Below, one piece after another: positions 21,719-51,757 of a stretch of DNA of 64,000 nucleotides (position 1 is the stretch's first letter; each line of letters begins with the position of its first letter). Below the pieces are notes generated by a model. It was not told where the DNA came from, made no database searches, and saw only the letters and a list, made by a program, of their open reading frames with translations. A program made the translations under genes and the position numbers. The DNA lies in the NCBI GenBank assembly GCA_003243965.1, contig QHBO01000012.1, positions 75,107 through 139,106 of the forward strand. Reading direction: 5' to 3'. Source of the stretch: Chloroflexota bacterium. Lineage in GTDB: Bacteria > Chloroflexota > Limnocylindria > QHBO01.

Positions 21719-22894
21719 CTACAGGGCCTCGCCCGCGTCGGCGATCAGCGCGGCGAGCAGCGCCGTGCGGGGCACGATGCTCGCCAGGTCGAGCCACTCG
21801 TCGTCGGAGTGGTCGTCGCCACCGATCGGGCCGAGCCCATCCAGCGTCGGCAGCCCGAGTGCCGCGGTCGTGTTCGCGTCGCTCGCCCCGCCGGTTGCCG
21901 CATCGTGCACCGCAAACCCGAGCTCCGCGGCGAGCCGTTGCGCGAGTCGGACGAGTCGTTCGGCTCCGGGTCCCCTCTCCATGACCGGGTGCCGAGCGAG
22001 CTGTTGCAGGCGCGTCAGCACGCCGGGGATCACGGGTCTGGCCGCCACCTCGTCCAGCGCCGCACACGCCTCGTCGAATTCCCCGGTCGACGCGGCTCGC
22101 AGATCGACCTCCAGCCGGCAGGCATCGGCCACCACGTTGGGGCGTGTGCCGCCGGCGATGACGCCGACGTTGGCGGTGACCGACGGCCAGCGCCCGTTCA
22201 GGGCGTCGATCGCGATCGCCTGGTGTGCGGCGGCCAGGACCGCGCTGCGCCCCTTCTCCGGCTCGATTCCGGCGTGTGCGGCGCGCCCGCGCAGCTCGAT
22301 CCTGAACTCGGCCACCCCCTTGCGCGCGCTGACGATGTCGCCGTTGGCCCGCGCGCACTCGAGGACGAGTGCGATGTCGTGGTCCGCTGCCAGGGAGCGG
22401 ATGATCGGTGTGCTGACCGGCGAGCCGATCTCCTCGTCCGGGTTGGCGACAAGGGTGACCGATCGCCGCACGCCGGATTCCGCCAGCGCAGCGAGCGCAT
22501 GCAGCCCTGCCAGCAGGCCGGCCTTCATGTCCGTCACGCCCGGCCCGGTGGCCCGCGCGCCATCGATGCGGAACGGCCGGTTTGCCGCAGTTCCAGGATC
22601 GAAGACGGTGTCCATGTGACCGATCAGCAGCAGGCGCGGACCGCTTCCGGCCAGGTGGCCGACGACCACATCGCCCAGCCGACCGTCTTCGTGTGCACCA
22701 GAGTCGGGGATCCGCTCGACGTCGGCGCCGATCGCGCGCAGCGCAGACTCCACAGCGTCGGCCACGCGGTTGACGCCCTCCGGGGTGTACGAACCACAGT
22801 CGATGTTGACCAGCGCCTCGAGCTCGGCGAGGTAACGGGGCAGGCGCCGCGTGACGATCTCCTGGAGGGCACGCGGAGAGGAGCTGGCCGACAT
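21719..22894 (-). CDS. M20 family metallopeptidase (carboxypeptidase G2 / ArgE/DapE-like)
   Basis: GHMDTV, DMK and EEIGS metal and catalytic motifs. Confidence 0.75.
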   Translation of the reverse strand: MSASSSPRALQEIVTRRLPRYLAELEALVNIDCGSYTPEGVNRVADAVESALRAIGADVERIPDSGAHEDGRLGDVVVGHLAGSGPRLLLIGHMDTVFDPGTAANRPFRIDGARATGPGVTDMKAGLLAGLHALAALAESGVRRSVTLVANPDEEIGSPVSTPIIRSLAADHDIALVLECARANGDIVSARKGVAEFRIELRGRAAHAGIEPEKGRSAVLAAAHQAIAIDALNGRWPSVTANVGVIAGGTRPNVVADACRLEVDLRAASTGEFDEACAALDEVAARPVIPGVLTRLQQLARHPVMERGPGAERLVRLAQRLAAELGFAVHDAATGGASDANTTAALGLPTLDGLGPIGGDDHSDDEWLDLASIVPRTALLAALIADAGEAL

Positions 22895-22911: not shown

Positions 22912-24543
22912 GTGGCCGTGCCTATACTCGGCCGCATGCCGCGGAGGGGAACGCCCAGGCCGGTCGAGCTGGTGGAGATTCGGATCCTGGATGGACCAAA
23001 CCGATTCTTCACCCGCCCCGCGGTGAAGCTCGAGTTCCGCGCGGAGCAGGCCGGCGTCGCCGCCGAGGTGGCCGCCGACGCGGGAGAGGCGGTGCGGCGC
23101 CTCCACGTCGCGCTCGATCTCCCGCCACCGCGGCTGACCGTCAGGGAATCCGTGGATCGCCTTCGCGCCGCGGTCGCCTATCCCTGGCGGCGGCGGACCA
23201 TCTCGCAGTCGATCGGGATTGCGGCGGCTCGCATCGCGCGCGGGGTCAGCACGCACCGCCGCGAGCAGGCGGCGCTGCGATCGGTGGCGCTCGGCCCGCT
23301 ACCGACCCACGCTCGCGCCAACACCCCGATCGTGGCCATCACCGGCACGAACGGCAAGAGCACCACCACCCGCCTCATCGCGCACATCGGGACCGAAGCG
23401 GGCATGCGCGTGGGCATGACGAACTCCGACGGCATCTACGTCGCCGGCGAGCTGGTCGAAGCGGGGGACTGGACCGGCTTCGGCGGTGCGGCCCGGATCC
23501 TGTCGGAGCCGCAGCTCGACCTGGCGGTCCTCGAGACGGCGCGGGGCGGCATCCTGCTGCGCGGGCTTGGCTACGCTGCCAGCGACATCTCGGTGGTCAC
23601 CAACGTCAGCGCCGACCATCTCGGGCTGCAGGGGATCGACACGCTCGACGAGCTGGCTGAGGTGAAGGCCACCGTCGTCCGCGTCGCGCGCCGCGGTGGC
23701 TGGGCGGTCCTCAACGCCGACGACCCACGGGTGTGGGCGATGCGGCGAGAGACCCGGGCGCGGTGGTACCCGTTCAGCCTGGATCCGGCGGCCGAGGGGC
23801 TCAGGCTGGCCCTCGAGCGCGGTGACCGGGGCGCGGTCCTCGATGACGGCTGGCTCGTGCTCCTGGACGCCGGCCATCGCACCCGTCTCGTGCCGGCGGC
23901 CGATCTGCCGGTGACGCTTGCCGGCCTGTCGCGCTACAATATCGCCAACGCGCTGGCCGCGGCGGCCGCCGCTGACGCGCTCGGCATCGGGCTGGAGCTG
24001 ATTCGCTCGGCCCTGCAGACCTTTGCGCAGGACACCGCCGCCAATCCGGGCCGGCTGAACCTGTTCGAGCGAGAGGGTGTGATCGTCGCGGTTGACTTTG
24101 CGCACAACGTCGCGGGTCTGCAAGGGCTGCTTGAGGTCGGTCGCGCGCTCGCGGGAGCGCGGCGGCTGCGGCTCGGCCTGGGCACCGCCGGCGACCGCAC
24201 CGATGAGGTGCTGTATGAGCTCGGCCGCCTCGCCGGCCGGGCCGCCGACGACGTGCTGATCGCCGAGAAGCGCCATTACCTGCGCGGACGCGATCTGGAT
24301 GAGATGAATGCCGTCTTCAGGCGTGGAATCGCCGCCGGCGGCTTCGAGGGCGAGGTGACCGCCGCTCCAGACGAGGTCGAGGCGGTCCGCGCGCTCGTCG
24401 AGCGCTGCGCGCCCGGGGACGTGGCAGCGGTGATGGCCCATGCCGATCGGCCGCAGGTCTTCGCCTGGCTGGCAGACAACGGCTTCGCTCCCGTCGACGC
24501 GGCGAGCGTGCTGTCCGCTCGCGCGGCGGACGCGGCGGGCTAG
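22912..24543 (+). CDS. Cyanophycin synthetase paralog with N domain plus Mur-ligase (M) domain; ATP-grasp domain absent
   Basis: N-terminal VELVEIRILDGPNRFFTRPAVKLEF parallels the CphA N domain (RIVDTRVYRGPNYWSYDPAIKLVV). It is followed directly by the Mur-ligase P-loop IVAITGTNGKSTTTR and an M domain colinear with the CphA M domain. Start is GTG 22912; ATG 22936 is an alternative. Confidence 0.7.
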   Translation: MAVPILGRMPRRGTPRPVELVEIRILDGPNRFFTRPAVKLEFRAEQAGVAAEVAADAGEAVRRLHVALDLPPPRLTVRESVDRLRAAVAYPWRRRTISQSIGIAAARIARGVSTHRREQAALRSVALGPLPTHARANTPIVAITGTNGKSTTTRLIAHIGTEAGMRVGMTNSDGIYVAGELVEAGDWTGFGGAARILSEPQLDLAVLETARGGILLRGLGYAASDISVVTNVSADHLGLQGIDTLDELAEVKATVVRVARRGGWAVLNADDPRVWAMRRETRARWYPFSLDPAAEGLRLALERGDRGAVLDDGWLVLLDAGHRTRLVPAADLPVTLAGLSRYNIANALAAAAAADALGIGLELIRSALQTFAQDTAANPGRLNLFEREGVIVAVDFAHNVAGLQGLLEVGRALAGARRLRLGLGTAGDRTDEVLYELGRLAGRAADDVLIAEKRHYLRGRDLDEMNAVFRRGIAAGGFEGEVTAAPDEVEAVRALVERCAPGDVAAVMAHADRPQVFAWLADNGFAPVDAASVLSARAADAAG

Positions 24544-27419
24544 AAGACCTCCGCGGCGAACGGTTCCTCCAGCTCTGCGAGCTCCCCGAGCTCGGTGACG
24601 GCCCGCGGCCCCCCCTCATCGCCAGCTCCGTCGTCGCCGCTGGGTCCGCCGTTGCCGCCGCCGCCGTGCTGGCGGCGCTGAAGCTCGAGCCACACGTCGT
24701 TGGCGTGATCGACGCAGACGACCACGATGTCGCCGTCGTCGGCGAGGTCGAGGGCGTGGCGCGCCGCATCGATCTCCTCGAGGCGAGTCTCGACCGTCTT
24801 GCACCGCGCGCCATCGCGCATCGCCCCGCGCACGCCCTCCTCGATCAGACCCGCCGTTTCGCCCGGCCGGCGGCCACGCGGATTGGCATCCTCGCGGATG
24901 ACGATCGTGTCGAAGTGGCCAGCGGCGACGCGGCCGAGCTCGCGGACGTCCTCATCGCGGCGATCCCCGGCAGTGGCGATGACGGCGATCCGGTGTCCGG
25001 TCACCAGGCCGCGCCGGCCGCCGGGTGCCGGCTCGGACAGGCGCTCGACGAACTCGCCAAGGGCGGCGAGGGCCGGGGGGTTGTGGGCATAGTCGATCAC
25101 CACCCGGTAGCCGTCGACCTCGAACATGTTCAGGCGGCCCGGGGCCATGAAGTAGCTGGTCGAGAAGGTCCGCAGCCCCTGGCGGATGTCGTGCAGGTGC
25201 GCTCCTGCCGCCCAGGCGGCGGCGGCCGCGGCGAGCGCGTTCTGGACGTTCATTCGGGCGCGCCCCTCGAAGGTGCTCGGGAGCAGGTGCGTCCAGACCA
25301 GCGGCATGCTCTTGCGTCCCTGGCGGAGCACGATCATCTCGCCGTTGCCGCCCTGCTCCAGGGTCACCGCGCGGCGGCCGCGTGCGGCGGCCCGCTTGAC
25401 GTGCTCGTTGTCGGGATCCATGGAGAAGTAGATCACCGATCCAGAGCTGGCGCGGGCCATGCCGGCCACCAGCGGCTCATCGGCATTCAGCACGGCCGTG
25501 CCGTAGCGCGGCACCGCCTCGACCACCACCTGCTTGACGCCCGCCAGCTGGCGGATCGAATGGATCCCGCCGAGGCCGAGATGGTCGCCGGTCACGTTGA
25601 GCACCACCGCGACGTCATTGCGCTGGTAGCCGAGGCCCTCGCGCAGAATGCCACCCCTGGCGACCTCGAACACCGCAACGTCGACCGATGGGTTCTGGAG
25701 GACCATCGACGCCGAGCGCGGGCCGCTCATGTCGCCGCGGCGGACGGTCCGGCCGTCCACGAAGATGCCGTCGGTCGAGGTCATGCCGACCTTGTGACCC
25801 ATGCCCTTGAGCACGTGGGCGATCATGCGTGCCGTCGTCGTCTTGCCGTTCGAGCCGGTGACGGCCACGATCGGGATCCGCGACGGCGTGCCCGGCGGGA
25901 AGAGCATGTCGATCACCGGTTTGGCGACGTACTGGGGCTCGCCCTCGGTCGGGTGCGTATGCATCCGGAACCCCGGCGCCGCATTGACCTCCACGATCCC
26001 GCCGCCGGTCTCGCGGACCGGACGTGACACATCGGGACAGATCAGGTCGATGCCCGCGATGTCGAGCCCGACCACGCGCGCCGCCAGCTCGGCGATCTCG
26101 GCGTTGTCGGGATGGATCTCCTCCGTTCGGTCGATGCTGATCCCGCCGGTGCTCATGTTGCCGGTCCGCCTCAGGAAGACCCGCGCTCTGCGGGGAGGCA
26201 CGTCGTCCAGCCCGAATCCCTGCTCCGCGGCGTACGCCATCGCCCCCTCGTCGAGGGTGATCCGGGTCAGGACCTTCTCATGACCGATTCCGCGCCGGGG
26301 ATCCGTGTTGGTGATCGCCACCAGCTCGCGCAGGGTGTGCTGGCCGTCGGCCTTGACGTGGGCCGGGACGCGCTGCGCAACTGCCCGCAGGGCGCCGTCG
26401 ATCACCAGGCATCGGTAGTCGTTCCCGATGAGGTACCTCTCCACCACCACCGCACCGCGTCGTGACTCACGGCGGGCCGATCGATAGGCGGCCCGCACGG
26501 CGGCATCGTCGGCTAGGTTGAGGGCCACGCCGCGACCGTGGTTGCCGTCGAGCGGCTTCACCGCCACCGGGAAGCCGATCACGTTGGCGACCTTGACCGC
26601 CTCCTCCTCGCCGCGCGCGATCTCGGAGCGGGGGACCGGGATGCCGGTCGCGGCCAGCAGCCGGTTGGTGAGCTTCTTGTCGGATGCGATATCGACCCCC
26701 AGCGAGCTGGTCTGGGACGTCATCGTGGCCCGGATTCGCTTCTGATGGCGGCCATGCCCGAGCTGGATGAGCGACTGCTCGTTGAGCCGGATGTAGGGGA
26801 TGTCGCGAAGCGTCGCCTCGTCGAGGATCGCCTGCGTCGAAGGGCCGAAGGCGGAGCGCTCCGCGAGCCGGATGAGGTCTTCGAGCTCGGCGAGGAAGTC
26901 GAAGGCGGTGTCCGCCTCGACCAGGTGGTTGACCAGCCGGACGGCAAGCCGTCCGGCGGCGAGGCCGACGCTCTCTTCCGCGTAGGAGTAGACCACGTGG
27001 TAGCGACCCGGCTCCCCGGTGCTCCGGGTCTTGCCACGACCCACCTCCGTGCCGGCCTCGCGCTGCAGCTGCAGGGCGATGTGCTCCGCGACGTGCCCCA
27101 GCCAGGTGCCCTGTCTGAGCCGCTTCTCGAATCCGCCCGGCTTGCCGGTCGAGCAGCTGTGCTCCGCCACTCCGGGCAGCAGCGACAGGAGGCCATCCAC
27201 GAAACCCGGGATCCGATTCGAGGGGAAGTCCTCGAGCACGCCGAGATCGACGACGAGCTTGATTGCCGGGTCGTAACTCCAGTAGTTCGGTCCGCGGTAG
27301 ACGCGCGTGTCAACGATGCGCAGCGTCGGCTGCGGGGCCGTCGCGACCCCCTGCGCGCGCCTCCGCCTCCTCGGAAGACGGTCGGTGCGCCGATCTCCGC
27401 GGCGCCCGTCGTCGCTCAC
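24540..27419 (-). CDS. cphA: Cyanophycin synthetase CphA (N domain, ATP-grasp, Mur-ligase domain)
   Basis: 959 aa. N domain GPNYWSY, ATP-grasp region, Mur ligase VTGSNGKTTT. GTG start overlaps the cphB stop. Confidence 0.9.
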   Translation of the reverse strand: MSDDGRRGDRRTDRLPRRRRRAQGVATAPQPTLRIVDTRVYRGPNYWSYDPAIKLVVDLGVLEDFPSNRIPGFVDGLLSLLPGVAEHSCSTGKPGGFEKRLRQGTWLGHVAEHIALQLQREAGTEVGRGKTRSTGEPGRYHVVYSYAEESVGLAAGRLAVRLVNHLVEADTAFDFLAELEDLIRLAERSAFGPSTQAILDEATLRDIPYIRLNEQSLIQLGHGRHQKRIRATMTSQTSSLGVDIASDKKLTNRLLAATGIPVPRSEIARGEEEAVKVANVIGFPVAVKPLDGNHGRGVALNLADDAAVRAAYRSARRESRRGAVVVERYLIGNDYRCLVIDGALRAVAQRVPAHVKADGQHTLRELVAITNTDPRRGIGHEKVLTRITLDEGAMAYAAEQGFGLDDVPPRRARVFLRRTGNMSTGGISIDRTEEIHPDNAEIAELAARVVGLDIAGIDLICPDVSRPVRETGGGIVEVNAAPGFRMHTHPTEGEPQYVAKPVIDMLFPPGTPSRIPIVAVTGSNGKTTTARMIAHVLKGMGHKVGMTSTDGIFVDGRTVRRGDMSGPRSASMVLQNPSVDVAVFEVARGGILREGLGYQRNDVAVVLNVTGDHLGLGGIHSIRQLAGVKQVVVEAVPRYGTAVLNADEPLVAGMARASSGSVIYFSMDPDNEHVKRAAARGRRAVTLEQGGNGEMIVLRQGRKSMPLVWTHLLPSTFEGRARMNVQNALAAAAAAWAAGAHLHDIRQGLRTFSTSYFMAPGRLNMFEVDGYRVVIDYAHNPPALAALGEFVERLSEPAPGGRRGLVTGHRIAVIATAGDRRDEDVRELGRVAAGHFDTIVIREDANPRGRRPGETAGLIEEGVRGAMRDGARCKTVETRLEEIDAARHALDLADDGDIVVVCVDHANDVWLELQRRQHGGGGNGGPSGDDGAGDEGGPRAVTELGELAELEEPFAAEVF

Positions 27420-28417
27420 TCGCTCGCCTCCTCGACCCGCCGCGCGCGCACCGCCCGACGACGACGAGCCCGCTCGACCACACGGTCGTCGGCACCCTCC
27501 GCGGCGACCCGGCGAATGAGCGCGCGCGCCCGTTTGCCGGCCGTCTCCATGGCGGCCAACTCGCGTTCGCTGGTGCTCAGCGCGCGGAGCGGCGCCAGCA
27601 GCCGCCGCCTTCGGAGGTCGAACCGGTATCCCGCCGGCAGCGAGTGGAGCAGAACGCCGCTGGCCATCATCGGTCGATGGCGCTTGACCTCGTACGCATC
27701 GGTCTGAAGCTTCGCCGGGTCGAGGATGGTGACCGACCCTTTGCCGATCACCTCCATCACTCCGTTGGGGCTCACCAGGGCCGCCGTGTCCTCGTCGATG
27801 CCCATCCCCAGCAGGGCCGGAGACTGGGCGATGAGCGCCAACAGGCGTCCGATCCGGTTGCGCTGCTCAAAATGCTGATCGATGAGGACGCCGGGGAGCA
27901 GCCCGAGTCCCGCGCTCATCTGCGTCATCCGCTGCTTGGGCGTGGCGCCGCTGGTGCCGAAGGCGACCATGTGCGTGCTCATCGCGGAGGCTCCGGCGCT
28001 GGTCCCCGCGACGATTGCTCCTGCCCGCTGACGTTCGAGCAGCGCGCGGCCAAGCAGCGTGCCGCCGATGACGCTCGCCAGCCGCAGCTGGTTGCCGCCG
28101 GTCATGAAGATGGCCGTCGCGTCATCGAGCAGGGCGGCGATGCGAGGATCGTTGGCGTCCTCCCGCGTGAGGGGGCGGATGCCGCGCACGTCGGCGACGT
28201 TCAGGGCGTGGAAGAGCGAGCGGTACAGGTCGGTCGCCTCGTCCCCGAGCGACGAGGCGGTCGAGATGACCACGATCCGGGCCTCGCTCGCACCCGCCAG
28301 CGCGATGAAGCGTGCGAGGATCTGCCGCTGGCGCAGCTTGTCCTCCGCTCCACCGATGATCAGCAGGTGACCACCCCGGGATGCCGGGCGCGGGGCAGGG
28401 AGCATGCGCGGCAGCAT
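27416..28417 (-). CDS. cphB: Cyanophycinase (peptidase S51)
   Basis: LLIIGGAEDK, MTGGNQ and GTSAGAS motifs (nucleophile Ser). Confidence 0.85.
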   Translation of the reverse strand: MLPRMLPAPRPASRGGHLLIIGGAEDKLRQRQILARFIALAGASEARIVVISTASSLGDEATDLYRSLFHALNVADVRGIRPLTREDANDPRIAALLDDATAIFMTGGNQLRLASVIGGTLLGRALLERQRAGAIVAGTSAGASAMSTHMVAFGTSGATPKQRMTQMSAGLGLLPGVLIDQHFEQRNRIGRLLALIAQSPALLGMGIDEDTAALVSPNGVMEVIGKGSVTILDPAKLQTDAYEVKRHRPMMASGVLLHSLPAGYRFDLRRRRLLAPLRALSTSERELAAMETAGKRARALIRRVAAEGADDRVVERARRRRAVRARRVEEASE

Positions 28418-28475
28418 AGCCGAACTCGGTCGCCGAACCTGGGCGAGCGGAGGCGCGCTCGGTAGACTTCACCAG

Positions 28476-29600
28476 ATGTCGTTTCGCAGCGAGGCACGCG
28501 ACTACTACGCCATCCTTGGCGCCGAGCCATCGGCGTCTGCGGCGGAGCTTCGCGGCGCGTTCCGCGAGGCGGTCCTCCGCCACCATCCGGACCGCACCGC
28601 CGCTTCCGAGATTGCGACGCGCCGCACCTCGATGCTCAACCGTGCCTGGGCAGAGCTCCGCGACCCGGTGCGCCGCCTGCACTACGACCGTGACCTCGAG
28701 CGCGGTCGCGCCGCCCTCGTGGAGTGGCCGCTCGAGGACGGCGAGGTTTCGCGCCGGCGTCAGCGCGGCCGGGTCGAGCCGCTTCCGCGCAGCCGCTGGC
28801 ACCAGCCGGAATGGCGTACCGCCCGCGGCTTTCGCGTTCCGGCCGAGGTGTTCGTCCGCGGACCGGCGGCCCAGGATCGCTGGATCGTGGAGCACCACAT
28901 CGCGGTTGACGACTGGAGAGCGCATTCCGAGCGCTACTGGCTCCGGTACGCCGCCGAGCACTACCGCGAGCGCGGCCGAGTCGACGACTGGCTTGGCTCC
29001 CTCGAGCGCCTGCTCGACGTCGACCAGAGCTATGACACGCTGGTGCAGTCCGGACTGCGTGAGGCCTACCTGGCGACCACCTCGTTCCTGAGGGGCGCCG
29101 CGCGCTTCGAGCGGATCGCGGTGCGCTACCCCGCAGGGACGCCGCAGCGCGCCTGGGTCGACCGCGAGGTCCGCGCCCTGCTCGGCGCCTTCCGGGATGC
29201 GCGCGTCCGGCGCGGCGCCGCGGCTGCGCGCGCCGAGAACGGCGAGATGCTGATGAACTACCTCGAGGTGCTCGGCATGACCCCCACCTTCGCGGATCTG
29301 CGCGCGGCCATCGTCGCGCATCGGCGGGCCGGCAACCTGGCGCGCGCCTCGGAGCTCGTGAGCCGCGCGGCGAACGAAGCGGTCACCGATCCAGCGCGCT
29401 GGTTCTCACTGGTGCAGCTGCTCACCGAGTCCGGGCAGCTGGAGCGTGCGTCGGCCCTCCTGGCGGAGGTGGCGCGCGGCGAGCACCCCGAGGCGCTCGA
29501 GCGGAAGGCGATCGGAGGCGACCCCGGTCGGCGGATCGCGGCCGCGCGCCGGCGCCTGCGTGTGGCTCGTGGCCGGGCCGCAACCGCCCACGCGGGATGA
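28476..29600 (+). CDS. J-domain protein with a C-terminal helical domain
   Basis: DYYAILG...LRHHPDR (HPD motif) at the N-terminus; about 300 aa of helical repeat follows. ATG at 28476; the ORF track has an upstream extension. Confidence 0.65.
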   Translation: MSFRSEARDYYAILGAEPSASAAELRGAFREAVLRHHPDRTAASEIATRRTSMLNRAWAELRDPVRRLHYDRDLERGRAALVEWPLEDGEVSRRRQRGRVEPLPRSRWHQPEWRTARGFRVPAEVFVRGPAAQDRWIVEHHIAVDDWRAHSERYWLRYAAEHYRERGRVDDWLGSLERLLDVDQSYDTLVQSGLREAYLATTSFLRGAARFERIAVRYPAGTPQRAWVDREVRALLGAFRDARVRRGAAAARAENGEMLMNYLEVLGMTPTFADLRAAIVAHRRAGNLARASELVSRAANEAVTDPARWFSLVQLLTESGQLERASALLAEVARGEHPEALERKAIGGDPGRRIAAARRRLRVARGRAATAHAG

Positions 29601-31093
29601 ACCTGCTGCGACCGAACGGTCGAGCGCTGGCCGGAGCGCTGGCGGGGGGCGGCAGCGCAGTGGTCGCGGCGCTGCTTGCGAACGTCGCCGGCCGCGAGAC
29701 GCCGTTCACCGCGCTGATGGTGCTGGTGGTCGCGCTGGTCGGCCTCGGCCTGGGGGCTGCCGCGGCGGTGTACGCCTATGCCGCGGCCGGCTTCGGGCTC
29801 TTTGCGTTGTCCGCCGTGGTGTACCGGGTCCCGACCAGCACGCCGGCCGACGTCCTGCGCTACGGCGCGTTCATCGTCGGGACACCGTTCGTCATCCTGC
29901 TCGCGCTGCGCGCGGAGCGGGAACGGCACGCGACCCTGGCGGCTCGGGACGTGACCGAGGCCGCAATTGCACGGGTCGAGGCCGAGCGGACCGAGACGGA
30001 TCGCGCGCGGCGCCAGGTCGACGACGCGCTGCGTGACGCGCAGCGTGAGCGTGCGCGGTTGGAGGAGGTGGCAGAGTCCATTCCCGAGCCGTTGATCGTC
30101 TACGACGCTGCATCCCAGGGCACCTACGGCAACCGCGCGGCTCTGCGCCTGTTCGGGCGCAGCTTCTTCGAGCGACCACTCGACGAATGGGGTCGCGCCG
30201 CTCGTCCCCGCGACGAGGCCGGGGACCCGCTGCCACCGGGCGAATGGCCCCAGGTCGCGGCCCAGCGATCCCCGATTCGTCGGCGGGTCATCGTCCGGCT
30301 GCCGATGTCGGGCCGCGACCTGATCGTTGACGTGGAGGGAACCCCGATCCCGGGCGGAGGCTGCGTCCTGCTGCTGCGGGACGTTGGGAAGGAGGAGGAT
30401 GAACGGCGGCGTCTGTCGCAGTTCGCCAGCTTCGTGGCCCACGAGCTGCGCAATCCGCTCGCGGTCGCAAAGGCTCGCGCGGAGCTGACCCTTCGGGAGG
30501 CCGGCCTTTCCGACCGGTCGCGAGTCCACACGGAGCGGTCGCTCGAGTCGGTAGATGCCGCCATCGGGATCCTCGAGCGACTCGAGCTCTACTCGCGGGC
30601 GGACGCCGGCCACATCGAGGCCCGACTCGAGCCGTTCCAGCTGGGCGCGGCGGTCGAGGCAGCCCTCGAGCGGCTCCGCGCCCGGGGGAGCGAGCGCGAG
30701 GTCATGGTCCGCGGTCCGATCGACACCCAGGCGCTCGGGGACCGCCACCTGGCCGAGCAGGCGATCACCAACGTGCTCACCAACGCGGACCGCTATTCGG
30801 AGCCGAACGCGCCTATCGAGATTGAGATCCAAGGCGGCGATCCGGTGGCGGTGCGGGTCAGCGACGCCGGCCCGGGGATCAGCGACGAGGTTGCGGGGCG
30901 GCTGTTTCGAGATCGGGTGGCCGGCGGCCGGGGCCTCGGCCTGGGGCTCTACCTGGTGGCCGCCACGATGAGCGCCCAGGGCGGATCGGTCCAGCTCGAG
31001 CAGCGCCGTCCGGCCGCCATCTTCGTCCTGCGCTGGCGGCGCGCATCGATCTCAGTCGGCGTCGAGGAACCGCCCGCGGTCACTCCCCGCTGA
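29597..31093 (+). CDS. Membrane sensor histidine kinase (4 TM, PAS-like, HisKA, HATPase_c)
   Basis: FVAHELRNPL H-box and G-box GLGLGLYLV. Start overlaps the J-protein stop (ATGA). No response regulator is adjacent. Confidence 0.8.
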   Translation: MNLLRPNGRALAGALAGGGSAVVAALLANVAGRETPFTALMVLVVALVGLGLGAAAAVYAYAAAGFGLFALSAVVYRVPTSTPADVLRYGAFIVGTPFVILLALRAERERHATLAARDVTEAAIARVEAERTETDRARRQVDDALRDAQRERARLEEVAESIPEPLIVYDAASQGTYGNRAALRLFGRSFFERPLDEWGRAARPRDEAGDPLPPGEWPQVAAQRSPIRRRVIVRLPMSGRDLIVDVEGTPIPGGGCVLLLRDVGKEEDERRRLSQFASFVAHELRNPLAVAKARAELTLREAGLSDRSRVHTERSLESVDAAIGILERLELYSRADAGHIEARLEPFQLGAAVEAALERLRARGSEREVMVRGPIDTQALGDRHLAEQAITNVLTNADRYSEPNAPIEIEIQGGDPVAVRVSDAGPGISDEVAGRLFRDRVAGGRGLGLGLYLVAATMSAQGGSVQLEQRRPAAIFVLRWRRASISVGVEEPPAVTPR

Positions 31094-32438
31094 CGACTGA
31101 GAGCGGCCCGAAGTCGGCCGCTTCGAGCTCCCCGCGGACGCGCGAGGAGTCGCCGGTGAGGAGAATCACGAGCTGCTCGGGCCGGATCAGCTCCCGCGCG
31201 GCGGCGTGCACCTCCTCGGGTCCAACTGCCTGTATCCGATCGCGGTACGTATCCCACCAGTCGTCCGGCAGTCCGTAGACGGCCAACGGCTCGATCGCGG
31301 CCGCAACGCCGCCGGTGCTCTCGAAGCGCAGCGGGAAGACGCCGACCAGGAAGTTCTTGACCTCGGCCAGCTCGTCGGGTTCCGGAGGCGTCCCACGCAT
31401 CCGGTCGAGCTGCGCAAGCAGCTCTTCGATCGCACGGGCGGTCACCTCGGTGTGCACCGCCGCATTCGCGACGAACGGTCCGGCCGAGCGTCGCGGATCG
31501 AACCCGGCGCGCGCCCCGTACGTGAACCCCAGCTCCTCGCGCAGGCGGAGGTTGAGGCGGCTCCCGAACACACCGCCGAGGAGGGCGGCCATGACCATCG
31601 CCGGAAAGTAGCGGTCGTCATAGCGGTCGATTCCAACGTGGCCGACGCGCAGCTCGCTCTGGACCGATCCGGGACGGTCGACGAGCACGACGCCGCGTCC
31701 GCGGGCGGATTCCGCCACGATCACCCGGTGACCGGGTCCCTGTCCCCGCCAGTCGCCGAAGACCGACTCGACGGTCGCCATCGCCGCCGTCGGATCGAAC
31801 GCTCCGGACACGACCAGGTGCGCCAGGGCCGGCGTGCAGTGGGCCGCATGAAAGCCGCGGCAGTCGTCGACGGCGAGCGTGCCCACGGTCTCGGGCAGCC
31901 CGCCCGACGGGCGGCCGTACGGCGACCCGGCCGCGTAGGCGTGGCGCAGGAACATCTCATCGGCAAGGCGACCCGGGTCGGCGCGCGACTGGAGGATGTC
32001 GGCCAGCCGCTCTGCCTTCAGGCGCTGGAACTCTGCCTCGTCCATGCGCGGCTCGCGGACCATCTCGGCCAGCAGCGCAAGCCCATCGTCGAGGTGCTTC
32101 GGCAGCGCGTGGAACGCGGCGCGCGCCGAGTCCCACGACGACTCGCTGCTGACGTCGATCCCCAGCCGCTCGGTGGCCTCTGCAAAGGCAGCCGCATCCA
32201 GACGCCGGGTGCCGGTCACCAGTAGCTGCGCGGTGAGCGCCGCGACGCCGGCCTGCTCCTCGGTCTCGGCCGCGGCACCGGCGTCGAACAGGAGGTGGAT
32301 GCTGACCAGGTCACGATCGGGCAGCGGGACCAGCCAGACGCAGAGTCCGTTCGCCAGGCGCTGCCGCTCGAAGCTGGGGAATCGGTACGGGCGAGGAGGC
32401 CCGGCGACCGGGCGGAGCGGGTTCAGGGTCCGGGTCAT
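31080..32438 (-). CDS. M16 family peptidase subunit (no HxxEH; likely non-catalytic partner)
   Basis: Pitrilysin-fold length and order without the zinc motif. Overlaps the upstream M16 gene by 4 nt. Confidence 0.75.
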   Translation of the reverse strand: MTRTLNPLRPVAGPPRPYRFPSFERQRLANGLCVWLVPLPDRDLVSIHLLFDAGAAAETEEQAGVAALTAQLLVTGTRRLDAAAFAEATERLGIDVSSESSWDSARAAFHALPKHLDDGLALLAEMVREPRMDEAEFQRLKAERLADILQSRADPGRLADEMFLRHAYAAGSPYGRPSGGLPETVGTLAVDDCRGFHAAHCTPALAHLVVSGAFDPTAAMATVESVFGDWRGQGPGHRVIVAESARGRGVVLVDRPGSVQSELRVGHVGIDRYDDRYFPAMVMAALLGGVFGSRLNLRLREELGFTYGARAGFDPRRSAGPFVANAAVHTEVTARAIEELLAQLDRMRGTPPEPDELAEVKNFLVGVFPLRFESTGGVAAAIEPLAVYGLPDDWWDTYRDRIQAVGPEEVHAAARELIRPEQLVILLTGDSSRVRGELEAADFGPLSVVSGE

Positions 32439-33852: not shown

Positions 33853-33927
33853 TGGTGAGCGGCCAGGGATTCGAACCCTGAACCTAGTGATTAAGAGTCA
33901 CTTGCTCTGCCGTTGAGCTAGCCGCCC
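33853..33927 (-). tRNA. tRNA-Lys (anticodon CUU)
   Basis: The reverse complement folds as a cloverleaf: GGGCGGC acceptor, D arm, anticodon stem AGTGA/TCACT with loop CTCTTAA, TTCGAAT T-loop, and an encoded CCA. Confidence 0.85.
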
Positions 33928-35890: not shown

Positions 35891-35974
35891 GGGCGAGTGG
35901 CGGAACGGCAGACGCGCCAGCTTTAGGAGCTGGTGTCGCAAGACGTGCGAGTTCGAATCTCGCCTCGCCCACCA
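35891..35974 (+). tRNA. tRNA-Leu (anticodon UAG), class II with long variable arm
   Basis: GGGCGAG acceptor pairs with CTCGCCC. Anticodon stem CCAGC/GCTGG with loop TTTAGGA, 13-nt variable arm, GTTCGAAT T-loop, encoded CCA. Confidence 0.85.
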
Positions 35975-35996
35975 CCTCGCAGGAGCACACCGCCCC

Positions 35997-37355
35997 GTGG
36001 TCACCGTCTCCACCCGCCCCGAGCCCGGATCGAAGGTGGTTCTCGAGATCGGCGTCGAGCCGGCCGAGGTCAACCGGCACTTTGCGGCCGCCTATCGGCA
36101 CGTTGCCGAGCGGACCAGGGTGCCCGGCTTCCGCCCGGGCAAGGCGCCGCGGCACGTGATCGATCGGTTCGTGGGCCACGCCTCGGTGCTGACCGAGGCA
36201 ATCGATCATCTGATCAGCGACAGCTACGACCGGGCGCTGGACCAGATCGACCTGATACCGATCGACCAGCCCCAGGTCGACATCGACCCAGCGGACATCC
36301 GCGAGGGGTCGCCCGCGCGATTCACGGCAACCGTCTCGGTGCGCCCTGAGGTCCAGCTCGGAGCGTACACCGGCTACCCGTTTGGCCTCGAGATCCCGTC
36401 GGTCGACGATGGGCAGGTGGACGAGGTGCTCAACGACCTTCGCGCGCAGCAGGCCACGCTGCGGCCGATCGATGAACGCCCAGCCCAGATGGGCGACGTC
36501 GCCGCGGTCCGGTACACCGGCACCATCGACGGCGAGCCGTTCGAGGGCGGTTCCTCCGATCGCATGCCGCTGGTTCTCGGCGAGGATCGCATGATCCCCG
36601 GGTTCGAGGAGCAGGTCGCCGGGATGCGGATCGGAGAAGAGAAGGGCTTCGAGGTCAGCTTTCCCGACGACTACCGGGTCGAGCGCCTGCGCGGGAAACG
36701 GGCGCACTTCCAGGTCACGCTGGTCGACCTGCGTGAGCGGATCGTCCCCGAGCTCGATGCGGCGTTCGTGAAGTCGGTCTCGGAAGTGGACACGGTCGAG
36801 GCGCTCGGTGCGGAGATCGCGGACGCGCTGCGCCGCCGGGCACAGGAAGAGGCGCGGCACCAGTTTGCCGATCGGATCATCGAGTTCGCCGCCGCCAACG
36901 CGACCGTCGAGCTGCCCGAGGTGATGGTCGCCAACGAGATCGAGATCATGCGCGACGAGCTCGCAAACCGGCTCGCACAGCAGCAGATCGGCATGCCGCA
37001 GTACCTGGAGCTCATGAAACAGACGCCCGAGGAGCTGGCCACCGAGCTGCGCGAGCCGGCCTCGCGGCGGGTGAAGACGCTCCTGGTGCTGTCGGCGATT
37101 GCCGAGCGCGAGGGGATCGACGCCACCGAAGCCCAGATCGCAGACGAGACCGAACGCCAGCTCGCGCGCTACGGCGATCAAGCGCGGCTCCGCGAGTACC
37201 TGACCTCGCGACGCGGGCGCTCCTACCTGCGCATGACGCTTCGCAACCGTACACTCGTCGAGACGCTGATCGACCGAGCGCTGGGGACCGCCGCTCCATC
37301 GGCCGAGCCGCCCGACCCGGAGCCCACTGTCGCCACTGCCCCTCCAACGGAGTAA
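35997..37355 (+). CDS. tig: Trigger factor
   Basis: 452 aa: ribosome-binding N domain, PPIase domain (FEGG...GFE), C domain. GTG start. Confidence 0.85.
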   Translation: MVTVSTRPEPGSKVVLEIGVEPAEVNRHFAAAYRHVAERTRVPGFRPGKAPRHVIDRFVGHASVLTEAIDHLISDSYDRALDQIDLIPIDQPQVDIDPADIREGSPARFTATVSVRPEVQLGAYTGYPFGLEIPSVDDGQVDEVLNDLRAQQATLRPIDERPAQMGDVAAVRYTGTIDGEPFEGGSSDRMPLVLGEDRMIPGFEEQVAGMRIGEEKGFEVSFPDDYRVERLRGKRAHFQVTLVDLRERIVPELDAAFVKSVSEVDTVEALGAEIADALRRRAQEEARHQFADRIIEFAAANATVELPEVMVANEIEIMRDELANRLAQQQIGMPQYLELMKQTPEELATELREPASRRVKTLLVLSAIAEREGIDATEAQIADETERQLARYGDQARLREYLTSRRGRSYLRMTLRNRTLVETLIDRALGTAAPSAEPPDPEPTVATAPPTE

Positions 37356-37358
37356 GCC

Positions 37359-38039
37359 ATGCTCGTCCCAATGGTGATCGAGAGCAGCGCTCGCGGCGAG
37401 CGCGCCTTCGACATCTACTCCCGGCTCCTCAAGGAGCGGATCATCTTCCTCGGCGACGCGATCGAGGACCACGTAGCGAACCTGGTCATCGCCCAGCTGC
37501 TGTTCCTCGAGAGCGAGGACCAGGAGAAGGACATCAGCCTCTACATCAACTCGCCCGGCGGCGTGGTGACCGCTGGGCTGGCGATCTACGACACGATGCA
37601 GTACCTCAAGGCCCCGGTGAGCACGATCTGCATCGGGCAGGCTGCGAGCATGGGCGCGGTCCTGCTGGCAGCCGGCACCAAGGGAAAGCGCTTCGCCCTG
37701 CCGAACAGCCGGATCATGATCCATCAGGGCTCGGGCGGCTTCCGCGGCAACACCCCCGACGTCGAGATCCAGGTGCGCGAGATGCTGCACCTCACCGACC
37801 GGCTGATGCACATCCTCGCCGACCACTGCGGCCAGGAGTACGAGAAGGTACGGCGCGACTCGGAGCGGGACTACTTCATGAGCGCCGACGACGCGAAGGC
37901 CTACGGCCTGATCGACGACGTCTTCGCCGGGACCACCGAGTCGCTGATCAGCTTGGCCCAGGCCGCCGGCGGCAACGTGCCGACCGCGTCCGAGGCCGCC
38001 GCCGCGGACACCCCGGGGCTCAAGCCCGCCAAGAAATAG
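37359..38039 (+). CDS. clpP: ATP-dependent Clp protease proteolytic subunit
   Basis: Catalytic Ser context GQAASMGA; the His and Asp are present. Confidence 0.9.
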
Positions 38040-38203
38040 GGCGGGCCGCGCCGGAGTCGCCCCGCCCAGCCGATCCACCGCGTTCCGCGACCGCACGGAC
38101 GGGGGCCATCGGGCGCCGATGACGGTCCGGGCGGAGCCGCAAATGGCCCGTGGTATCCTCGCCGAGCAGCCATCGGCCCAGCAGCAGGAGTCGGCCCGAA
38201 CCG

Positions 38204-39502
38204 ATGACCCAGAAGACCAAGGTCCCATACCGCTGCTCGTTCTGCGGGAAGAGCCAGGAGCAGGTGCGGAAGCTGATCGCCGGGCAGGGCGTCTACATCT
38301 GCGACGAATGCATCAACCTCTGCCAGGAGATCATCGAGGAGGAGATGCTCGAGACGCCGCGTGCCAAGAGCGCACCGGCGCCGCTGCCCAGCCCGCGGAA
38401 GATCAAGGAAGCGCTCGACCAGTACGTCATCAGCCAGGAGCCGGCCAAGAAGGTCCTGTCGGTTGCCGTCTACAACCACTACAAGCGGGTCAACGCCGGC
38501 CACAACGTGGACGATGTCGAGCTCGGCAAGAGCAACGTCCTGCTCGTCGGCCCCACCGGCTCCGGGAAGACGCTGCTGGCCCAGACGCTGGCCAAGATCC
38601 TGGATGTGCCGTTCTGCATCGCCGACGCGACCAGTCTCACCGAGGCCGGATATGTCGGCGAGGATGTCGAGAACATCCTCCTGCGGCTCATCCAGGCCGC
38701 CGATTTCGACGTGCAGCGCGCTCAGCGCGGGATCATCTACATCGACGAGATCGACAAGATCGCCCGCAAGACGGACAACCCGTCGATCACGCGTGACGTG
38801 TCGGGTGAGGGGGTGCAGCAGGCCCTGCTCAAGATCCTGGAGGGGACGGTTGCCAACGTCCCACCGCAGGGCGGACGCAAGCATCCCCACCAGGACTTCA
38901 TCCAGATCGATACCACCAACATCCTGTTCATCTGTGGCGGCGCCTTCGAGGGGCTCGAAAAGCTCGTCGAGGAGCGCGTCGGGAAGCGCGGGATCGGGTT
39001 CGGCTCGCAGGCGCAACGGCCGCGCGAGGAGCGCCGGCGGGCGCTGATGGAGCAGATGATGCCCGAGGACCTGCTCAAGTACGGGCTGATTCCCGAGTTC
39101 GTCGGCCGCCTGCCGGTGGTGGTCAGCCTCGCCGCACTGGCCGAGTCTGACCTCGTCCGGGTGCTCACCGAGCCCAAGAACGCGGTCACCCGCCAGTTCA
39201 GCAAGTTCCTGTCGCTCGACAAGGTGGAGCTTGTCTTCACGCCCGATGCGCTGGACGCCACCGCCCGTCTGGCGCTCGACCGCAAGACCGGCGCTCGCGC
39301 GCTGCGGACGATCGTGGAGGAGGCGCTGCTGGAGGTGATGTACGACATCCCCGAGCGCACGGACGTGAAAAAGGTGGTCATCACTGCCGAGACGATCGAG
39401 CACGGACAGCCGCCGATGCTCTTGACCGAGACCGAGGATGCCGAGCCGCGCCGCGGACGGGGCAAGGAGCGTCCGACCGAAATCGAGGCCGAGTCCGCCT
39501 GA
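38204..39502 (+). CDS. clpX: ATP-dependent Clp protease ATP-binding subunit ClpX
   Basis: Zinc-binding CSFCGKS...CDEC, Walker A GPTGSGKT, and the ClpX C-terminus. ATG at 38204 (MTQKTKV). Confidence 0.9.
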
Positions 39503-49103: not shown

Positions 49104-49231
49104 CGGGTCTTCGACATCCTTCGGGAGTGGCGGCTCGGGAGCCGAAGAATACGAGCCGCCACCTGCTCTCCCAAGGACGCATTGGTACCCGTCGGGAAGC
49201 CGTTCGTACCGTGCGTGCTAGCATCGGCCCG

Positions 49232-49990
49232 ATGGGGATGCTGTCCCGGGTCGAGACGTTCCTCGAGCGCCTTTTCGAGGCTCCCGCAGGGCGCATGGGG
49301 GCGACCCTTCAACCGGTCTCGATCGCGCGCCGCCTCGAGCGGGCGATGGACAGCAACAAGTCGTTCCAGGACGACGGCGTGGTGGTGCCCAACCAGTACG
49401 AGGTGCACCTCAGCCCGCCGGACTACCAGCGCTTCGCCCCCCGCCGAGGGTCGCTCGAAGACGACCTAGCGCATGGGCTGCTGGCGCGGACCCGGCACGA
49501 GCGGTACATCCTCGTCGCGCGGCCCCGCGTCCAGATCGTGTCGGACCCGGCTGTGCGCCGCGGCGACGCGCGGATCGCGGCCAATGTCGTCGACGAGGAG
49601 GGAGGGCGGCTGCGAGCCGACGTGCCGATGCCCGGGATGAGCGACACGATGATCTTCGCCCCCGTTCGGGGCGACGAGCAGCCTCCCGACTCGGCGATGC
49701 GAGCGTATCTGCTGGTGCGGACCGATGGCGGCTCGCCGGTCCAGTTCGATCTTGGCGGCCCGCTGATCACCATCGGGCGGGCCAGCGATAACGATGTCAT
49801 CGTCGACGACGTGCAGGTCAGCCGGCACCATTGCCAGCTGAAGCTCCAGCACGGCGCCTACAGTTTTGCCGATCTCGGCAGCCGGAATGGCTCGCTGGTC
49901 AATGGCCAGCCGGTGAGCGAGATCGCGCTGGGACCGGGAGACGTGATCCGCATCGGAGGGACGGTGATCGACTTCCAGGTGCGCGGATGA
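49232..49990 (+). CDS. fhaA: FhaA-like protein (DUF3662 N domain plus C-terminal FHA domain)
   Basis: N-terminal MGMLSRVETFLERLFE (DUF3662-like). C-terminal FHA domain (IGRASDNDVIVDD..VSRHHCQL...GSRNGSLVNG). Confidence 0.75.
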   Translation: MGMLSRVETFLERLFEAPAGRMGATLQPVSIARRLERAMDSNKSFQDDGVVVPNQYEVHLSPPDYQRFAPRRGSLEDDLAHGLLARTRHERYILVARPRVQIVSDPAVRRGDARIAANVVDEEGGRLRADVPMPGMSDTMIFAPVRGDEQPPDSAMRAYLLVRTDGGSPVQFDLGGPLITIGRASDNDVIVDDVQVSRHHCQLKLQHGAYSFADLGSRNGSLVNGQPVSEIALGPGDVIRIGGTVIDFQVRG

Positions 49991-50430
49991 CCGGGGATGC
50001 GCTCCGGATTCTGCTGCTCGGCGCCCAGCTCGGTTTCCTGCTTCTCCTGTACCTGATCCTCTTTGGTTTCGCTCGCTCGCTGGTGCGCGACCTGCGCAGC
50101 GCCGAGCATGCACAGCTCGCCTCGCGCACGGGGATCGGCCGCCTCGCCGTGCTGGAGTCGCCGGAGGACGAGCCGCCCCAAGGGCGGACCATCTCCCTCG
50201 GCCCGATCAACTCCATCGGCCGCAACGTGAACAACACGATCTACGTGGAGGACGAGTTCGCGAGCGCGAACCACGCGATGCTGACCTTTCGCGGTCGCTC
50301 GTGGTTCGTCGAGGACCAGGGAAGCACCAACGGGACCCTGGTCAACGGTCACCGCATCGACCGACCGGTCGCGCTGTCGTATGGCGACGAGATCTCAGTC
50401 GGCCGGGTCCGCATGCGGCTGGAGCGCTAG
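49987..50430 (+). CDS. fhaB: FhaB-like membrane-anchored FHA-domain protein
   Basis: Transmembrane helix LLLGAQLGFLLLLYLILFGF, then an FHA domain (IGRNVNNTIYVEDEFASANHAML...GSTNGTLVNG). ATGA overlap with fhaA. Confidence 0.7.
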   Translation: MTGDALRILLLGAQLGFLLLLYLILFGFARSLVRDLRSAEHAQLASRTGIGRLAVLESPEDEPPQGRTISLGPINSIGRNVNNTIYVEDEFASANHAMLTFRGRSWFVEDQGSTNGTLVNGHRIDRPVALSYGDEISVGRVRMRLER

Positions 50431-50437
50431 CCGACCG

Positions 50438-51757
50438 ATGCGCCTGGCCTGGCGGGGGACCGAGCTCTGGCTGCTGCTGCCCCTGCTGCTGCTGGTGCCG
50501 CTCGGGTTTGTGATCACCCATGTCGCCGAGTCGCAGGTGCTCGAGCCAGGGCCGCTGGGCCTGGCCACGGCCTACGTCGCACTCGTGCTCGCAGCGCATC
50601 TGGTGTTGGTGCTCTCCGGCCACCGCGGCGATCAGCTGTTGCTGCCGCTGGTCGCCACCATCGGCGCGATCGGGATCGTGATGCTCAACCGTCTGCCGGG
50701 CGGCACCTCGCTGCTCGGGCTGAACATTGGTCTGGCGGTGACCCAGGTGGCGTGGTTCGGGATCGGGCTGATCGCCATGCTGGCGGTCGCCATCGGCTTC
50801 CGCGATGACGGCCTGCTGCGCCACTACAAGTACACCTGGGCCGCGGGCGGAGTGGCGCTGCTGGTGTTCACCATCCTGTTCGGCACGGAGATCAATGGGG
50901 CGCGGCTGTGGATCTACATCGGGCCGATCGGCTTTCAGCCGGGCGAGTTCATCAAGATCGTACTGGTCATCTTCATCGCCGGCTACCTCGCGGAGAATCG
51001 CGCGCTCCTCGCCGGGGCGAGCTACCGGATCGGCCCGATCTCGGTGCCGCCGCTGCCCTACCTGCTCCCGATGCTCGCCATCTTCTTCGGCGTGATGCTG
51101 GTCGTGGCAGTCAGCAACGACCTGGGAACGGCGCTGCTGTTCTTCGGCATCTTCCTGACGATGCTCTTCGTCGCCACCGGCCGGCGGAGCTACGTGCTGA
51201 TCGGCCTGCTCCTGTTCGTCACCGGCTCGTACGTGGCATATCGGCTCTTCGCTCACGTGCGGCTCCGCGTCGACGTGTGGCTCGACCCGTTCGCCGATCC
51301 AAGCGGCGCGGGCTACCAGATCGTCCACGCGCTGTATGCGTTCGGCCGCGGAGGACTCTTCGGTGACGGGCTGGGGCGCGGCCTGCTGCCGACCGTGCCG
51401 GGCTTCTTCGCGATCCAGACTGACTTCATCTTCACCGCGATCGCCGAAGAGCTCGGGCTGGTCGGGGCGTTCGCGCTGCTGGCGTTCGCGGTGTTCCTGG
51501 TGTTCCGTGGTCTACGGGTCGCGGTGCTCGCCCGGGACGAGTTCAGCAGCCTGCTCGCCGTCGGGCTGACCACCAGCATCGGGCTGCAGACCCTGATCAT
51601 CGTGGCGGGCAACGCCAAGCTGATTCCGCTCACCGGCATCACGTTTCCGTTCCTGTCGTACGGTGGCTCGAGCATCCTGGCCAGCTTCCTGATCATCGGT
51701 CTGTTGCTCTCGATCAGCCACCGCGCGGCCGCTGAAGGCGACCAGGTGCCGCGGTGA
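50438..51757 (+). CDS. rodA: SEDS-family peptidoglycan glycosyltransferase (RodA/FtsW)
   Basis: 439 aa with about 10 transmembrane segments and SEDS motifs (GAQRWI-like GARLWIYIGPIGFQPGEF, IFTAIAEELG). Confidence 0.8.
   Translation: MRLAWRGTELWLLLPLLLLVPLGFVITHVAESQVLEPGPLGLATAYVALVLAAHLVLVLSGHRGDQLLLPLVATIGAIGIVMLNRLPGGTSLLGLNIGLAVTQVAWFGIGLIAMLAVAIGFRDDGLLRHYKYTWAAGGVALLVFTILFGTEINGARLWIYIGPIGFQPGEFIKIVLVIFIAGYLAENRALLAGASYRIGPISVPPLPYLLPMLAIFFGVMLVVAVSNDLGTALLFFGIFLTMLFVATGRRSYVLIGLLLFVTGSYVAYRLFAHVRLRVDVWLDPFADPSGAGYQIVHALYAFGRGGLFGDGLGRGLLPTVPGFFAIQTDFIFTAIAEELGLVGAFALLAFAVFLVFRGLRVAVLARDEFSSLLAVGLTTSIGLQTLIIVAGNAKLIPLTGITFPFLSYGGSSILASFLIIGLLLSISHRAAAEGDQVPR

Follow-up and report, generated by a model that had tools for sequence, protein, structure and literature searches.

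A class-specific type III J-domain protein encoded directly upstream of an orphan sensor histidine kinase in Limnocylindria

When the gene for a J-domain protein is followed immediately by the gene for a membrane sensor histidine kinase, is the J protein a co-chaperone dedicated to that kinase? The question is raised by a 64-kb stretch of DNA (hereafter, the window; GC content ~70%) from a soil member of the Chloroflexota that belongs to the uncultured class Limnocylindria. The original prediction for this locus was of a dedicated co-chaperone, with Hsp70-gated signalling or a chaperone-assisted membrane sensor as the outcome. Our comparison of related loci indicates that the kinase gene has been lost time and again while the J protein shows no sign of change, so that the principal client of J is probably something other than, or additional to, the kinase. 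We consider that the odds are somewhat in favour of a class-specific type III J protein that has a client of its own and is co-transcribed with an accessory orphan kinase. The components themselves, as first described, are borne out by the analyses below: a J domain with its HPD motif, a long helical C-terminal domain, a position upstream of and overlapping (ATGA) a PAS histidine kinase with four transmembrane helices, and the absence of a nearby response regulator.

One genome per GTDB species was scanned, which yielded 80 J loci, and the kinase was called by tblastn. Four of these loci end too early downstream, leaving 76 in which its presence can be judged. The kinase gene lies directly downstream of the J gene in 59 of these species and is absent in 17. 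In a neighbour-joining tree of J proteins, presence of the kinase is ancestral and parsimony requires at least seven independent losses; one clade of 11 species lacks the kinase entirely. We also conducted the reverse survey, in which metagenome contigs were searched starting from the kinase, and the J gene is immediately upstream in all 70 testable loci. Two more kinase orthologues on long contigs likewise follow a J gene, and every genome locus with the kinase has the J gene. The dependence is therefore asymmetric: the kinase always occurs with J, whereas J often occurs without the kinase. This asymmetry fits a core J gene with an accessory, immobile kinase gene, and would equally fit a kinase that needs J. 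The expectation that the pair would be conserved as neighbours held for most species and failed in 22% of them.

Approximately 20 kb around the J gene is collinear across the class. The order runs from pyruvate/2-oxoacid dehydrogenase genes through a thioesterase, an M20 peptidase, a Mur-ligase-like gene, cphA and cphB, and continues in the opposite orientation with J and the kinase, followed by two M16 peptidases, a DUF3105 gene, trigger factor, clpP and clpX. Because the whole region is syntenic, conserved adjacency of J and the kinase is expected from common descent alone. Only breaks in the gene order are informative, namely the repeated deletion of the kinase, a block of TrpR-like and his genes, and a single deletion of the cyanophycin cluster. 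The pair is not kept together beyond this background synteny wherever either gene occurs. Among the 120 best relatives of the J protein there is no fusion to the kinase; an apparent 503-amino-acid fusion (P0025) was rejected because its gene call extends too far at the N-terminus, where it reads the cyanophycinase gene in antisense.

The J protein does not change in a recognizable way when the kinase is lost. Its HPD motif is intact in all 17 kinase-less species, and its mean column entropy is not raised in them (0.711, versus 0.760 ± 0.029 in size-matched samples of kinase-positive species). Positions 106, 113 and 283 are invariant with the kinase and variable without it, but were rejected as residues that track kinase loss, since they change only within one sub-clade of nine species and so reflect a lineage effect. 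No change at any J residue follows kinase loss across independent events. We also compared distance matrices of J, the kinase, CphE, M16b and M16a from 41 species in a mirror-tree analysis. The partial correlation between J and the kinase is 0.095 when neighbouring genes are controlled for, which indicates no excess co-evolution; the M16a matrix is unreliable, probably owing to paralogue cross-matches.

At the junction of the two genes in the window, the kinase start codon overlaps the J stop codon. A 4-nucleotide overlap of this kind is possible in 25 of 59 related loci, and the remainder have gaps of ~0 to 60 nucleotides (122 in one case), so the strict overlap is not universal. Co-transcription is nonetheless likely, because these gaps leave no space for a separate promoter and terminator. 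The overlap probably provides co-expression, and perhaps translational coupling, in the window genome, and not an obligatory partnership. Both open reading frames (ORFs) have the codon-position GC pattern of real genes, with a third-position GC content of 0.86 in each.

The J protein is very basic and, judging by hydropathy, soluble. The DnaJ family is its sole Pfam domain above cut-off (50.9 bits against a cut-off of 27.8, E = 1.7e-13, profile positions 1 to 63 of 63), and is matched in all 25 family members that were scanned. The HPD motif (H37-P38-D39, nucleotides 28584 to 28592) is kept in 81 of 81 sequences, and among PDB entries a profile of the family picks up the J domains of DnaJ, CbpA and DNAJB proteins. 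In an AlphaFold2 model built with 25 orthologues (predicted local distance difference test score, pLDDT, of 87), the J domain is followed by a small beta element (residues 82 to 122), a disordered segment (94 to 102), and then by 13 helices that extend to residue 373, making the C-terminal part all-helical. A TPR_19 match at residues 284 to 334 is below threshold.

These features assign the protein to the type III (class C) J proteins, with a putative TPR-like client domain. Pfam scans, including those of the 25 members, found no DnaJ_C domain, zinc finger or Gly/Phe-rich region. DnaJ and CbpA have a canonical J domain in common with this protein, which lacks the Gly/Phe region, zinc finger and DnaJ C-terminal domain. 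Matches to the NCBIfam models for DnaJ, CbpA, DjlA and HscB are confined to the J domain, at scores far under the cut-offs of these models. Identity as a type I or type II DnaJ was rejected on these grounds (42 to 44 bits versus cut-offs of 377 to 585; for TIGR02349, 42.5 versus 377), as was identity as CbpA (NF007618, 30.1 bits versus 403) and as DjlA (NF006948, 19.1 bits versus 162), the last also because the J domain is N-terminal and a hydrophobic segment is absent. Many orthologues carry the JGI label "curved DNA-binding protein CbpA", an artefact of J-domain similarity.

The closest known architecture is that of Synechocystis Sll1384, a DnaJ of type III that has its J domain at the N-terminus and TPRs at the C-terminus, and serves as a client-specific co-chaperone of DnaK2 for RbcL (PMC9948308). 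Both proteins are bacterial and soluble, with an N-terminal J domain containing HPD, a linker, and C-terminal helical repeats that are thought to confer client specificity. However, they have no detectable sequence relation outside the J domain, the solenoid of the Limnocylindria protein is longer (~250 amino acids) and very basic, and its genomic context of kinase and cyanophycin genes is different.

Hundreds of orthologues were found at 60 to 70% identity, and those with names are assigned to Candidatus Limnocylindria or Chloroflexota; more than 120 of them, at 63 to 70% identity, are all from Chloroflexota of the Limnocylindria type. When the part outside the J domain (residues 81 to 374) was searched against 1.84 billion representative proteins, all 36 matches were members of its own family, fragments, or frameshifted calls. 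The family is thus restricted to this one uncultured class. Three apparently distant relatives of the C-terminal domain (P0264, P0267 and P0269) were rejected as frameshifted or antisense gene calls from the same locus. These three and P0025 are over-extended or frameshifted public gene calls that run antisense through cyanophycinase into the J gene; spurious long ORFs are common in high-GC DNA, and they inflate the apparent diversity of the J family. The record titles of four loci (L004, L006, L016 and L023) name Steroidobacteraceae, Dormiibacterota or Methylomirabilota bins, yet the locus is of the Limnocylindria type, and binning errors are the probable cause. The J gene family is undescribed and the J-kinase bicistron is without an earlier report: we found no description of the pair in Limnocylindria in the literature.

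The kinase is 100% identical to NCBI entry DLM71_02705, which is annotated "Chloroflexi bacterium" and derives from a metagenome-assembled genome. Its Pfam scores are 25.5 bits for PAS_8 (cut-off 21.8), 44.5 for HisKA and 54.1 for HATPase_c, the latter two also above their cut-offs. Kyte-Doolittle hydropathy peaks near residues 20, 48, 66 and 95, and an AlphaFold2 model (pLDDT 82.6) places helices at residues 8 to 30, 38 to 52, 54 to 75, and from 83 onwards (83 to 161). The predictions are consistent with four membrane helices joined by very short loops, which would be too short to accommodate an extracytoplasmic sensor domain. Beyond the membrane part, the model continues with a long helix that leads to a PAS fold, then to a pair of DHp helices and the catalytic domain. 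The PAS alpha/beta fold has a beta-sheet over residues 166 to 262 (pLDDT ~90), and with many invariant columns among 24 orthologues it is the best-conserved part of the sensor region. The phospho-accepting H-box residue His282 is invariant in the same 24 sequences, and the FVAHELRNPL, NADRYS, DxGPG and GRGLGLGLYL motifs are invariant or nearly so. The N-termini of orthologues read MxLLRP..., in agreement with the start codon at 29597. The kinase resembles generic class I PAS-HisKA kinases in its phospho-acceptor histidine, N/G1/G2 boxes, cytoplasmic PAS domain and minimal-loop membrane anchor. By contrast with named kinases, it reaches the cut-off of no NCBIfam kinase family (a heavy-metal sensor subfamily comes nearest, 88.9 bits versus 292.6) and has no linked regulator. 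Neither this protein nor the J protein matched any PADLOC model of anti-phage defence.

A partner for the kinase was sought in the window and in 82 related loci, which cover ~10 kb around the J gene. Pfam Response_reg has no match among the ~70 window ORFs scanned. We also built a receiver-domain hidden Markov model from five textbook sequences, which recovered two held-out regulators at E-values of 1e-37 and 5e-31. Applied to the window and the 82 loci, translated in six frames as 14,268 segments, this model gave no match at all, even with E <= 10 allowed. No receiver-domain gene, and so no canonical two-component operon, accompanies the kinase in any of them, and the block that separates the kinase from the M16 genes in other species contains a TrpR-like gene and a histidine biosynthesis operon but no receiver domain. 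The orphan status of the kinase holds for all loci examined, throughout the class.

Upstream, J is divergent from cyanophycinase and cyanophycin synthetase genes, whose products score 254.7 bits (cut-off 126.6) and 1154.8 bits (cut-off 850) with the respective NCBIfam models. The J gene adjoins cyanophycinase in 76 of 78 testable genome loci and in 32 of 32 metagenome loci. Cyanophycinase is thus the most constant neighbour of J, and this link is more constant than that to the kinase.

We aligned the cphB-J intergenic region from 77 sequences and observed a -10-like hexamer upstream of each gene. On the J side, the hexamer lies 6 to 8 nucleotides from the aligned ATG in 77 of 77 relatives, with the variants TAGACT (62), TATCCT (9), TATGCT (5) and TAGCAT (1). 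This constant spacing supports a J start at 28476 and not the longer ORF that begins at 28404. On the cyanophycinase side, a hexamer is matched in 58 of the 77, with a 7-nucleotide spacer in 50 of these. Because this mirrored element precedes a conserved ATG by 7 nucleotides, cyanophycinase likely starts at 28405 (Met5 of the longest ORF) and not at 28417. The two hexamers are separated by a median of 29 nucleotides, within a shared divergent region (window positions 28403 to 28478) that is the same in loci L003 to L082. The arrangement implies back-to-back promoters for putative leaderless mRNAs of J and cyanophycinase. A consensus promoter and terminator scan of positions 27800 to 31600 found nothing, and the hexamers surfaced only in the comparative alignment.

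The reading that we favour, of a J protein with its own client and an accessory kinase, could operate as follows. The J gene would be transcribed as a leaderless mRNA from the conserved promoter that lies back-to-back with that of the cyanophycinase/cyanophycin synthetase operon. Through its canonical N-terminal J domain, the protein would engage DnaK and stimulate the DnaK ATPase, with the very basic TPR-like solenoid binding a particular client or partner. The window itself contains no dnaK gene. The two-gene unit of J and kinase is probably ancestral to Limnocylindria, with the kinase as an accessory passenger. The kinase presumably senses through its membrane helices, its cytoplasmic PAS domain, or both, autophosphorylates on His282, and signals to a response regulator encoded elsewhere.

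Several points weigh against this interpretation. A kinase orthologue was never seen apart from J, as would be expected if the kinase depended on J, and equally if its gene simply does not move. The absence of the kinase in 17 species was judged at the J locus, and a relocated copy elsewhere in those genomes is possible. The genomes all come from uncultured organisms and were assembled from metagenomes, with mis-binning in some cases. At 60 to 70% identity with 41 to 77 sequences, the mirror-tree and entropy tests have little power and are blind to a small interface. Finally, it is from sequence that we infer that DnaK is recruited, that the solenoid binds a client, that the two genes are co-transcribed and that the mRNAs are leaderless.

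The originally proposed alternative is a dedicated module. In such a module the J solenoid would attach to the cytoplasmic part of the kinase and bring DnaK there, such that DnaK availability, and with it the proteotoxic load, gates dimerisation or activity, or else J and DnaK would fold or insert the kinase. What stands of this proposal is the tightness of the pair, with its overlap in the window, its retention in 78% of species, where the gap exceeds about 60 nucleotides at one locus only, and a kinase that in all 70 testable metagenome loci has J upstream. The kinase also has neither a linked regulator nor an extracytoplasmic domain that would explain its input. What speaks against it concerns the dedication itself. 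J persists with its HPD motif intact and its sequence constraint unrelaxed in the 17 species left without the kinase by seven or more losses, its evolution does not follow that of the kinase to excess, the 20 kb of synteny makes adjacency unspecific, and fusions are absent among its 120 best relatives. We conclude that the J protein is probably not a kinase-dedicated chaperone, and regard the gated module as improbable.

Conceptual models for such a module come from eukaryotes. DNAJC3/p58IPK is a mammalian protein with TPRs and a J domain that binds and inhibits stress kinases, and ERdj4 is a J protein that loads the Hsp70 BiP onto the membrane sensor kinase IRE1, thereby repressing it. The kinase families in these cases are unrelated to the histidine kinase described here. 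The domain order of p58IPK is reversed, with a C-terminal J domain. Homology to the Limnocylindria protein does not go beyond the J domain, the only part that 2y4t matches. The only bacterial precedent that we found documented for Hsp70-dependent control of two-component signalling is DjlA of E. coli (PMC11709261). This J protein, also of type III, activates the Rcs phosphorelay, a His-Asp relay, by means of its J domain in concert with DnaK and GrpE. This precedent favours the module in that a J protein acts on a phosphorelay via DnaK. Unlike the Limnocylindria protein, however, DjlA is anchored in the membrane and has a TerB-like middle domain and a C-terminal J domain. Moreover, it is not encoded beside the rcs genes, it acts on the interaction of RcsD with IgaA and not on the kinase, and its effect is seen on overproduction.

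A role in cyanophycin metabolism is as possible as the dedicated kinase module, and equally unproven. J might recruit DnaK to the synthetase, to cyanophycinase, or to the insoluble granule, with expression coordinated through the shared divergent promoter region and with the kinase as a separate or nitrogen-related passenger. The constancy of cyanophycinase as a neighbour is suggestive of such a role, as are the -10-like elements ~29 nucleotides apart, a distance at which the two promoters would have to interact sterically. One might also speculate that the very basic solenoid (pI 10.8) could bind the acidic polymer backbone. However, one locus (L008) has lost the whole cyanophycin cluster, in a single event, and has kept both J and the kinase, and in another (L046) J and cyanophycinase are 1.3 kb apart. 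Adjacency is again expected from synteny alone, and no conserved operator is visible between the hexamers in the comparative alignment. A full-text literature search found no link between J proteins and cyanophycin. In addition, our survey took J as its query and so covers the loci that have J. We therefore judge this role unlikely as well.

A compromise between these ideas is slightly less probable again: J would load DnaK onto the PAS/DHp region, the kinase would thereby read the level of free DnaK, and kinase-less lineages would keep J for a second client, possibly in cyanophycin turnover. The pair would then be the bacterial equivalent of ERdj4-BiP-IRE1, and a form of DjlA-Rcs that is hard-wired in the genome. 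Very unlikely, finally, is that the basic helical repeats bind nucleic acid in the manner of pentatricopeptide repeats (PPRs), so that J would be a co-chaperone associated with RNA or DNA, comparable to CbpA or to J proteins linked to ribosomes or RNA, and unrelated to its neighbours. In favour of this idea are the basic pI, the arginine content (17%), the summed matches of the J profile to designer PPR proteins (E ~2e-13, profile positions 259 to 369) and a J-plus-PPR architecture known in Synechocystis (PMC9948308). However, no stretch of the PPR matches passes singly, Pfam PPR families are unmatched in 25 family members while TPR families are weakly matched, and a high arginine content is expected at 70% GC.

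If a dedicated J protein and DnaK did gate the kinase, bacteria would have a first operon-encoded case of two-component signalling under the control of a chaperone, and an input signal for the orphan kinase would suggest itself. The J and kinase components are each of known kinds, however, and the evidence does not support a new mechanism. The reading of J as part of the conserved core of an abundant, uncultured class of soil and freshwater bacteria is more ordinary. Its practical value lies in a new J-protein family that is well defined, for which there is now a confident structural model and a promoter, probably leaderless, that has been mapped precisely. The 17 kinase-less species also provide a natural experiment for finding the regulator that works with the kinase and the client of J. 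Coordinates of the features discussed are listed in Table 1.

Table 1. Features of the J-kinase locus and its divergent neighbours, in window coordinates
Feature	Position	Strand	Remarks
Divergent cyanophycinase/cyanophycin synthetase operon	24540..28405	-	cphB/cphE 27416-28405; cphA 24540-27419
-10-like hexamer TATGCT	28413..28418	-	7 nt before conserved cyanophycinase ATG (28405-28403); back-to-back with putative J promoter
-10-like hexamer TAGACT	28463..28468	+	7 nt before J start codon
J-domain protein	28476..29600	+	374 aa; pI 10.8; 17% Arg; hydrophobic segment absent by hydropathy
J domain, residues 9-71	28500..28688	+	Pfam PF00226
Predicted C-terminal TPR-like alpha-solenoid, residues 123-373	28842..29594	+	conserved basic helix 350-373 at end; presumed client- or partner-binding
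ATGA, kinase start overlapping J stop	29597..29600	+	read in sequence
Orphan membrane sensor histidine kinase	29597..31093	+	498 aa; Pfam PAS_8, HisKA and HATPase_c above cut-offs
Four membrane helices, residues ~8-105	29618..29911	+	hydropathy peaks and AlphaFold2
Cytoplasmic PAS domain, residues ~153-265	30053..30391	+	PAS_8 153-207; PAS_4 160-265; preceded by signalling helix 106-161
HisKA (DHp) then HATPase_c	30413..31006	+	HisKA residues 273-338; HATPase_c 381-470; His282 at nt 30440-30442

Downstream of the kinase, a convergent M16 peptidase gene (31080 to 32438, minus strand) overlaps it by 14 nucleotides at the 3' ends (31080 to 31093), and no intrinsic terminator-like structure was detected at this overlap. 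In many relatives a gene for a TrpR-like repressor and a his operon (hisG, fused hisD-hisC, hisB, hisH, hisA and hisF) lie between the kinase and the M16 genes. Examples are found in L044 (12690 to 19100), L083 (7565 to 13467) and L001 (12623 to 13774). The window genome does not have this block, and some relatives retain an aminotransferase alone.

Adjacent to the cyanophycin operon is a gene (22912 to 24543, plus strand) for a 543-amino-acid protein that matches the Mur-ligase (M-domain) half of cyanophycin synthetase alone and is without the ATP-grasp domain. It aligns with positions 472 to 848 of TIGR02068 at 389.6 bits, below the cut-off of 850. This gene and full-length cphA overlap at their 3' ends, and the gene adjoins an M20 glutamate-carboxypeptidase-like gene (21719 to 22894), an arrangement that is kept in most related loci. 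Its product may be a stand-alone ligase that modifies cyanophycin.

Two further clusters were observed in the window. Positions 49127 to 53304 encode an FhaA-like FHA-domain protein, an FtsW/RodA-family protein and a penicillin-binding transpeptidase, and are reminiscent of the actinobacterial cell-wall signalling cluster. Approximately 5 kb downstream of J is a proteostasis cluster (35891 to 39502), which opens with a tRNA-Leu(TAG) gene and includes trigger factor (35997 to 37355), a probable clpP (37359 to 38039) and clpX (38150 to 39502), the latter two names being taken from orthologous loci and not from the window ORF scan. A tRNA-Lys(CTT) gene is located at 33853 to 33927.

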